Assembly: GCA_963827685.1 (NCBI GenBank)
Contig: CAWHBU010000006.1
Coordinates: 320,001 to 384,000, forward strand
Reading direction: 5' to 3'
DNA: 64,000 nt
From: an uncultured delta proteobacterium
Lineage (GTDB): Bacteria; Desulfobacterota; BSN033; UBA1163
In this document: positions 3,348 to 3,419 of the stretch, one piece after another
Numbering within the stretch: the first letter of the stretch is position 1
How the letters are laid out: each line of letters opens with the position of its first letter
Program-made: the position numbers and the translations under genes
The notes under the pieces: model-generated
Told to the model about the DNA's origin: nothing
Database searches by the model: none
Seen by the model: the letters and a program-made list of their open reading frames with translations, nothing else

Positions 3348-3419
3348 AGAATATAACAATATTGTGATATTGTCAAGGACCAAAAAATATTTGGCGGTAG
3401 CACAAATTTGTGATACACT
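3348..3419. promoter_or_regulatory. Divergent promoters, each overlapped by a related 20-bp palindrome
   Basis: Minus TTGACA-17-TATTCT (3376-3348), plus TTGGCG-17-TACACT (3391-3419); ATATAACAATATTGTGATAT (3351-3370) and GTAGCACAAATTTGTGATAC (3397-3416). Confidence 0.65.

Follow-up and report, generated by a model that had tools for sequence, protein, structure and literature searches.

HigBA-like toxin-antitoxin operons with twin operators are well known, and the association of irregular tRNAs with toxin-antitoxin genes has a published precedent. Irregular tRNAs with 'impossible' pairs of anticodon and body have been known from metagenomes since 2017, with no function given. In the sections of Mukai et al. 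(2017, Nucleic Acids Res, PMC5389517) covered here, such tRNAs lie near toxin-antitoxin systems and transposon-related genes, a UAU allo-tRNA pseudogene overlaps a transposon-related open-reading frame (ORF), irregular-tRNA polycistrons are seen in soil metatranscriptomes, and E. coli was killed by two of the six UAU species that were converted. A 2020 review (PMC7609411) repeats these observations in its covered part, and neither text, to the same extent, gives a mechanism. A paper bringing together tRNA-like RNA, HigB and toxin-antitoxin systems (PMC8265657) concerns, in the portion covered, transfer-messenger RNA (tmRNA) only. Here we describe an irregular tRNA gene lying back to back with a HigB-type toxin-antitoxin-DUF3467 operon in a stretch of 64,000 nt, hereafter the window (assembly GCA_963827685.1, contig CAWHBU010000006.1, positions 320,001–384,000), from an uncultured delta proteobacterium (Desulfobacterota; BSN033; UBA1163). 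Coordinates are window positions unless a related locus is named, and the site under study, 3348–3419, holds two divergent promoters.

Relatives were sought with an alignment of 30 homologues of the XRE protein as query, and 87 loci were retrieved (13 from a species-genome collection, 71 from metagenomes and 3 from viral contigs); the species-genome loci are labelled Terriglobales, Nitrospinota, Nitrospiraceae, Binataceae, Oligoflexia and several proteobacterial classes, including alpha- and betaproteobacteria. In all 87, the three operon proteins were mapped by tblastn and tRNAs by ARAGORN, and a covariance model made from 11 class-I tRNA examples was run. Counts of upstream tRNAs refer to the 45 non-redundant loci that were left after removal of 6 exact duplicates and 14 loci with less than 230 nt upstream of the toxin gene. 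The first-pass annotation of the window had staked its proposal on the tRNA not being absent beside homologous trios, and in 20 of the 45 a tRNA-like gene was found no more than 420 nt upstream of the toxin, with no further tRNA called in the rest of the 155.5 kb that these loci comprise. The link between the irregular tRNA and the toxin-antitoxin operon is real and widespread, and it is not due to chance.

Repression of both the tRNA and the operon by the XRE antitoxin is the best reading that the sequence offers, and we consider it reasonably probable. It had been put forward earlier as a four-component system (tRNA, toxin, antitoxin and DUF3467 protein) that was not recognized as described. 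That last statement was too strong, as the covered text of PMC5389517 already places irregular tRNAs near toxin-antitoxin systems, and the unit is larger than four components, adding an IS1-like gene, a small basic protein, an antisense promoter and a terminator. The features that the argument needs first are the following.

3215–3287, minus strand: irregular class-I tRNA gene (anticodon GCU, 7/5 cloverleaf, 5-nt variable loop, A73, no encoded CCA)
3348–3376, minus strand: outward promoter facing the tRNA (−35 TTGACA at 3376–3371, 17 nt, −10 TATTCT at 3353–3348; box 1 in the spacer)
3391–3419, plus strand: operon promoter (−35 TTGGCG at 3391–3396, 17 nt, −10 TACACT at 3414–3419; box 2 in the spacer)
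3420–3782, plus strand: HigB-type (Gp49/DUF891) toxin gene, reading ACG where the family has its ATG (first ATG at 3489)
3760–4239, plus strand: XRE/HigA-like antitoxin, presumed repressor, 159 aa (Pfam HTH_3, E 1.9e-9; helix-turn-helix at residues 38–90)
4236–4553, plus strand: DUF3467 protein, 105 aa, third gene of the operon (Pfam DUF3467, E 1.2e-6)

Related palindromes at two divergent promoters

Box 1, ATATAACAATATTGTGATAT at 3351–3370, and box 2, GTAGCACAAATTTGTGATAC at 3397–3416, are each self-complementary, by eye, at 18 of 20 positions. Their common core, CACAANNTTGTGATA, searched with one mismatch allowed, matched within the 64 kb at these two sites only, which, counted on both strands, makes four matches where 0.09 were expected; none of 100 shuffles reached four. 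The two related 20-bp palindromes reported by the first-pass annotation are thus present and are the sole such sites in the window. In relatives, where a site was scored as a match to an 18-mer consensus at 11 or more of 14 positions, the pair recurs in most cases at about −68 and about −22 from the toxin start, some 46 bp apart. Across the 39 non-redundant loci that have both boxes, a mean of 3.69 mismatches separates boxes of the same locus and 4.24 those of different loci, and none of 2000 permutations gave a within-locus value as low. The genome contains a second, divergent copy of the entire layout (L089; G000:C3:1116500-1127000, 4277–7009), which carries palindromes that are unlike those of the window and that match each other. 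The claim that the two boxes represent one operator type is upheld by both results, and since boxes match within a locus and the differing palindromes of L089 again match each other, a single binder for both boxes is well supported by sequence comparison. The XRE antitoxin is the predicted binder, judging from its protein class.

Both promoters are built alike, with a −35 followed by 1 nt and then 16 nt of the box, whose last TA begins the −10. A box in the spacer of each of two back-to-back promoters had been proposed earlier, and on the tRNA side this held: the outward promoter has 10 of 12 consensus positions, and in 15 of the 18 close non-redundant loci that were compared for promoters the minus-strand −35 at box 1 keeps at least five of six positions, each time with a TAnnnT −10. 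These 15 include the tRNA-less loci L001, L023, L028 and L029. On the operon side it held less well in the window itself, where the promoter is weak (8 of 12, below the listing of the promoter scan), whereas TTGACA stands in the same register in 15 of the 18 relatives.

The ORFs of the operon match Pfam Gp49, HTH_3 and DUF3467, in agreement with the RelE-XRE-DUF3467 trio called before. The toxin, a member of the RelE/ParE superfamily, matches Gp49 (PF05973) with 45.5 bits against a cut-off of 23.9 (E 7.9e-12), and the start of the antitoxin gene overlaps the end of the toxin gene (3760 vs 3782), with the toxin-first order kept in all of the loci that have a toxin match (64 of 87). The solved sequences closest to the antitoxin are those of M. 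tuberculosis HigA2 (E 9.8e-6), HipB and HigA3. Its C-terminal tail of about 55 residues is variable, tails of similar length being found also in loci without a DUF3467 match, and a tblastn search of plasmids with the antitoxin produced two distant Legionella matches only.

The DUF3467 protein gave tblastn matches in 23 of the 87 loci, and the third genes of nine more distant loci include four that pass the Pfam DUF3467 cut-off, two below it and three with no match. The structure model, with three strands and a long helix (predicted local distance difference test, pLDDT, 73; N-terminal 29 residues disordered), had no Foldseek match in the PDB at E ≤ 0.001, and the best rows, nucleic-acid binders (MRP1/2, the PP7 and Qbeta coat proteins, PUR-alpha and Sub1; E 0.4–2), are too weak to use. 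A protein atlas search returned unnamed clusters only (0.83–0.84), and complex prediction of the DUF3467 protein with the antitoxin tail (residues 96–159) gave no verdict (score 0.00). A SecB-like chaperone was considered for this third protein and found no support: Pfam SecB does not match, solved sequences searched with a profile built from 18 homologues yielded no SecB, and no SecB is among the best 50 of 402 Foldseek matches of the model, a weak fold comparison at pLDDT 73. As a SecB-like third protein is not supported, the operon was not filed as a toxin-antitoxin-chaperone (TAC) system.

An irregular tRNA and its slot in related loci

The presence of a tRNA gene opposite the operon, as annotated in the first pass, was confirmed by ARAGORN (3214–3288, minus strand, anticodon GCT) and by the Rfam tRNA model (57.5 bits, E 2.8e-11). 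Aligned to that model, the 73-nt tRNA has 7 bp in its acceptor stem and 5 bp in its T stem, a layout that is seen also in the 11-sequence class-I alignment, and a T-run follows its 3′ end. A long variable arm (class II) is the main mark for seryl-tRNA synthetase. The four tRNA-Ser genes of the host are 88–93 nt long, against 73 nt and a variable loop of 5 nt in the window tRNA, and the 49 tRNA genes called by ARAGORN in the 5.2-Mb assembly include a canonical 93-nt tRNA-Ser(GCU) on another contig; no close match to the window tRNA was found among the host tRNAs. With the long arm missing and the canonical tRNA-Ser(GCU) located elsewhere, the window tRNA is, by its build, not the host's serine tRNA.

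In the 11 class-I homologues, 90.9% of cells pair in the expected fold compared with 66.4% in shuffles, 18 of 21 pairs vary on both sides, no shifted pairing register comes near, and the usual tertiary positions are invariant or nearly so. The window tRNA departs from its relatives in three stems, and every change is compensated. By these measures the tRNA is under selection for its fold. Most GCU-type members carry A20, C35, U36 and A73, which we take to be marks for arginyl-tRNA synthetase. When the host tRNAs were scored with the family profile, tRNA-Arg(UCU) and tRNA-Arg(CCU) ranked first with 74.1 and 73.2 bits and the next tRNA reached 72.5 bits, a small margin that gives a weak lead; by plain identity to host tRNAs, Arg was first or tied first for L014, L021 and L017 and not for L003 and L044, these being the five members compared. 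A search of 101 related genomes with the tRNA model did not help, as ordinary tRNAs reached the scores of the irregular ones.

The tRNA-like gene lies on the strand opposite the operon in 15 of the 20 loci, with its 5′ end about 110–145 nt from the toxin start (two, L007 and L053, are weak model matches), and on the operon strand in the other five; L045 resembles an ordinary tRNA-Leu, 242 nt upstream. The class-I GCU group comprises the window, L014, L016, L017, L020/L021, L022 and L044, while the slot holds an ACU tRNA in L002 and L003, a UAC tRNA in L010 and L060, and a tRNA with a 6-nt anticodon loop in L006. Long-arm tRNAs of 89–95 nt, all with UAU, occupy the minus strand of L035 and L040 and the plus strand of L054–L057, L075 and L076, where some are preceded by a second odd tRNA. 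Judged from anticodon and body, the GCU type joins a serine anticodon to a non-serine body, and the long-arm UAU type joins a serine-like body to an anticodon for an isoleucine codon. Within each type the anticodon is constant (GCU in the class-I group, UAU in the long-arm tRNAs), though the bodies differ. Spacing, orientation and terminator are kept across loci labelled Nitrospinota, Nitrospiraceae, alpha- and betaproteobacteria. L035 and L040 belong to the close clade of the window, with the same IS1-like gene (72–76% identity), the DUF3467 gene and the small basic protein, and as they carry long-arm UAU tRNAs, one slot can take different tRNA types. L040 also presents a second case of toxin decay, in which the toxin ORF (1652–1861) is cut to 69 codons and the UAU tRNA, the antitoxin and the DUF3467 gene are kept.

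The wider unit and a predicted antisense transcript

DNA similarity between the window and L014 spans 935–1828, 3249–4052 and 4283–4871, beyond the operon and the tRNA on both sides, and window 920–4841 is probably one copy of a mobile module that is present in several bacterial phyla. Its remaining features are listed below.

920–1753, minus strand: IS1-like transposase gene, 277 aa, conserved left neighbour (Pfam DDE_Tnp_IS1)
1754–1789, minus strand: promoter and putative operator of the IS1-like gene (TTGACA at 1789–1784, palindrome GCTTGAGCGCTCAAG at 1780–1766, TATAAT at 1765–1760, 6 nt to the ATG)
1841–1869, plus strand: predicted antisense promoter, once aimed into the tRNA and now cut off by the IS4 element (TTGACA, 17 nt, TATAA(T))
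1869–3196, minus strand: IS4-family insertion sequence (9-bp target duplication ATGCTATAA at 1860–1868 and 3197–3205)
3303–3328 (hairpin) and 3329–3337 (U-run), plus strand: predicted intrinsic terminator closing the antisense unit (fold −16.4 kcal/mol, z −3.5)
4558–4806 (with promoter to 4841), minus strand: small basic protein, 82 aa, conserved right neighbour (TTGACT at 4841–4836, TATGCT at 4818–4813, GTG at 4806)

The match of the IS1-like gene to DDE_Tnp_IS1 (27.6 bits vs a cut-off of 24.1) covers residues 196–227 only, and its score with the NCBIfam IS1 transposase model (57.9) is below the cut-off of 100; plasmid genes of cultured bacteria that are 52–59% identical to it are annotated 'IS1 family transposase', and tblastn matches to it lie beside the toxin-antitoxin genes in 21 of 87 loci. 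The small basic protein has tblastn matches in 15 of 87 loci and is 40% identical (E 6e-8) to a 'histone H1' protein that lies beside an IS1-like gene on a Mesorhizobium loti plasmid. The promoters of these two genes contain palindromes that are related to each other (inverted repeat I3) and unlike boxes 1 and 2, and both have about 6 nt between the −10 and the start codon. No terminal inverted repeats around the unit were common to 8 loci aligned end against end, and no integrase was found within the unit among the window ORFs with Pfam.

The IS4 element, one of seven near-identical copies in the assembly from which its ends were set, has inverted repeats that are 95% complementary and encodes a transposase of 403 aa (Pfam DDE_Tnp_1 and DUF4372); given the seven near-identical copies, it is probably active. 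It splits the unit, parting the tRNA from both the antisense promoter and the IS1-like gene. When the element and one copy of the duplication are removed in silico, TTGACA-17-TATAAA is regained, with its end 8 nt short of the 3′ end of the tRNA. A predicted plus-strand promoter ending 3–10 nt before the tRNA 3′ end is present in 7 of 16 loci (L014, L016, L017, L020, L035, L040 and L089), with TTGACA or TTGCAA, 17 nt and an A/T-rich −10. At the other end of the predicted antisense unit, a plus-strand hairpin and U-run stand just past the tRNA 5′ end in 9 of 10 folded loci, with compensatory stem changes; read on the minus strand, the terminator is a hairpin in the tRNA leader.

The module is otherwise single-copy in the genome, the second copy in L089 being a 53%-identical paralogue. 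Its order is an IS1-like gene, a weak tRNA-like element (24 bits), a plus-strand hairpin with T-run, two AT-rich palindromes with a minus-strand TTGAC between them, and then a Gp49-like ORF (E 4.4e-4), an HTH_3 ORF and a third ORF of 218 aa without a family. The tRNA-like element is degenerate, its anticodon loop reading AUUUACA, and its 3′ end lies 37 nt from the start codon of the IS1-like gene, with a Shine-Dalgarno-like run and, by eye, no separate promoter between them. Outside this copy, 7468–8016 of L089 is an ORF with a RelA_SpoT domain of the small alarmone-synthetase type (E 1.1e-10) that runs into another IS4 copy, which may have cut it short. In the more distant loci L002 (900–995), L003 (2370–2455) and L044 (440–522), about 80 nt of conserved GC-rich sequence separate the 3′ end of the tRNA from the IS1-like gene and may form a structured leader or a second RNA element. 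Two other features were noted in the window, an antitoxin-like ORF with a SocA/Panacea domain (295–852, minus strand, E 3.9e-23) just left of the IS1-like gene and an ordinary tRNA-Val(CAC) gene (13746–13820, minus strand).

Readings of the locus and related systems

Given the paired boxes and the conserved promoters, we propose the following scheme. The core operon would encode a HigB-type (Gp49) ribosome-dependent RNase toxin, a HigA-like XRE antitoxin doubling as repressor, and the DUF3467 protein, and the outward promoter would transcribe the irregular tRNA and, in relatives, run on towards the IS1-like gene. The antitoxin, alone or with the toxin, would sit on both boxes, so that the tRNA would be silent while antitoxin is plentiful and made once it is lost. 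The tRNA appears to be a working cloverleaf selected on its anticodon, and as it cannot be a serine tRNA, it would most likely act as a mis-decoding or blocking tRNA in translation rather than being a spare part. In the closest relatives it would also be covered by an antisense transcript running from a promoter at its 3′ end to the terminator at its 5′ end, and such cover fits a product that must be kept off. A further step, which we offer as a tentative guess with the chances rather against it, is that the irregular tRNA is a 'poison' effector under two locks, the antitoxin operator and the cis-antisense RNA. This guess is prompted by the anticodon kept within each type, the mismatch of body and anticodon, the two layers of control and the small margin by which the host tRNA-Arg(NCU) ranks first. 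Loss of antitoxin would then lead to mis-insertion of an amino acid or to jamming of ribosomes at AGY or AUA codons, with the tRNA acting beside the HigB-type RNase or replacing it.

Several observations weigh against the proposal of joint repression and its extensions. The sequencing runs that could be listed for the locus were four DNA runs from a single study, with no RNA run among them. The box pair is present also in tRNA-less loci (e.g. L001, L023, L028 and L029) and in L054, L055, L057 and L075, whose tRNAs precede both boxes on the operon strand, which indicates that the operators belong first to the toxin-antitoxin operon; box 1 may be just its distal operator, and control of the tRNA by the antitoxin is not universal. 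No tRNA was detectable in 25 of the 45 relatives, and L018 (about 1540–1570; duplicate L019) has only the 5′ half of a class-I tRNA beside an intact terminator, boxes and operon, so the toxin-antitoxin pair can do without the tRNA. Position 33 is C rather than U in L016 and L022, both of the GCU group, which is unusual for a decoding tRNA, and 8 more distant loci yielded no antisense promoter. The −10 of the operon promoter lies directly against the conserved ATG of the toxin (0–4 nt in close relatives; 3414–3422 in the window), and a transcription start at the usual distance would therefore fall within the toxin ORF. Finally, the toxin start in the window is ACG, compared with ATG in all 19 aligned relatives (those of the 64 loci with a toxin match that are close, non-duplicate and full-length, plus three more distant), and the next in-frame ATG (3489) would drop 23 conserved residues, leaving no canonical start in the window.

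A different explanation is that the module in this genome is a decaying relic in which the toxin is not made and the IS4 element breaks the circuit, the palindromes and the tRNA persisting because decay is recent. Along with the ACG start, the operon −35 of TTGGCG where most close relatives have TTGACA, the placing of the multicopy IS4 element between the tRNA and the antisense promoter with the IS1-like gene, and the single-copy state of the module are as expected of a relic. However, the toxin reading frame runs uninterrupted through 120 codons and, the first residue apart, has retained all those conserved at 90% or more, the antitoxin and DUF3467 ORFs are intact, and the tRNA changes in three stems are all compensated; moreover, a relic would account for this copy only and not for the family. 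We regard full decay as a doubtful explanation that still has an appreciable chance of being right. The ACG start, the weakened −35 and the IS4 insertion do mean that the window copy is partly disabled, and the pattern suggests a copy being disarmed of its toxin while the antitoxin, the DUF3467 gene and the tRNA stay intact.

Alternatively, the outward promoter may serve the IS1-like transposase, with the level of antitoxin gating transposition and the tRNA-like gene being only a passenger in the transposase leader, or a processing handle there for RNase P/Z, and playing no part in translation or toxicity. The outward promoter is kept in loci without a tRNA, where it faces the IS1-like gene as the next gene, and an IS1-like match is present in 11 of the 15 loci with a minus-strand tRNA. 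The 37-nt gap without a separate promoter in L089, the GC-rich stretch that fills the gap between tRNA and IS1-like gene in L002, L003 and L044, and the filling of the same slot by different tRNA types also agree with such a role. On the other hand, the IS1-like gene in the clade of the window has its own promoter with its own, different operator, none of the five loci with operon-strand tRNAs has an IS1-like match, anticodons are conserved within types, which a mere processing handle would not need, and a dedicated antisense promoter and terminator bracket the tRNA alone. A promoter kept for the transposase is for these reasons unlikely to be the explanation. It is highly improbable that the tRNA is an ordinary one of the host or left over from an integration site, next to which the toxin-antitoxin genes arrived fortuitously or at an island's edge: tRNA genes are common island borders, L018 has half a tRNA only and L045 has its ordinary-looking tRNA-Leu, but the host already owns a tRNA-Ser(GCU), spacing, orientation and terminator are conserved across the loci of several phyla, no integrase lies in the unit, and anticodons such as ACU, or a class-I body with GCU, are to our knowledge outside the normal bacterial set.

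The locus and its relatives offer a testable circuit, with a candidate repressor, a pair each of operators and promoters, an antisense unit and, in one slot, a small range of tRNA types. If the tRNA is induced on loss of the antitoxin and mis-decodes, the module would be a natural device for regulated mistranslation on a mobile element and a new kind of toxin-antitoxin effector; if the tRNA is a poison, it would be a hybrid protein/RNA toxin-antitoxin module moving with an IS1-like gene. If the tRNA serves only the transposase leader, the state of the toxin-antitoxin pair would be linked to transposition, and either answer would be new.

Among described systems, the allo-tRNAs of Mukai et al. 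resemble the long-arm UAU tRNAs of L035, L040, L054–L057, L075 and L076, some of which follow a second odd tRNA, and the window tRNA likewise adjoins toxin-antitoxin and transposon-related genes. The window tRNA, however, has a standard 7/5 cloverleaf with a short variable loop in place of the 8/4 or 9/3 acceptor/T-stem, and for that reason it is not an allo-tRNA. The covered sections of PMC5389517 make no mention of any shared operator, divergent promoter, antisense unit, DUF3467 gene or frame of IS1-like and H1-like genes; the shared-operator layout was likewise not found in the literature searched, where DUF3467 came up in one unrelated paper only, and the figures and supplements of that paper may overlap these loci. 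TAC systems, as far as PMC5105189, PMC6377645 and PMC9098466 were covered, share with this operon a HigB-like toxin, a HigA-like antitoxin with a variable C-terminal tail and a small third protein, which is a SecB-like chaperone there and a DUF3467 protein here.

Like IS1-family elements with passengers, the module has a putative DDE_Tnp_IS1-type gene conserved beside its cargo, and a related pair of IS1-like and H1-like genes frames an unrelated HTH operon on the M. loti plasmid; unlike them, it shows no terminal inverted repeats in the 8 loci and is present in the genome as one copy plus its paralogue. Toxins controlled by antisense RNA are found in type I and in RNA-RNA 'type VIII' systems. 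As in those, convergent promoters are predicted to give fully complementary transcripts and a terminator would end the antisense RNA just past its target, but the covered RNA here is tRNA-like rather than the mRNA of a small peptide, a putative protein repressor is present as well, and toxicity of the tRNA is hypothetical. With type II HigBA operons, the locus shares a Gp49/RelE toxin gene in first position, an overlapping HTH_3 antitoxin gene and two palindromic operators at the promoter. It differs from them in that the distal operator lies in a strong divergent promoter predicted to transcribe a tRNA-like gene, and in that a conserved third gene for a DUF3467 protein, an IS1-like gene and a small basic protein travel along with the operon.

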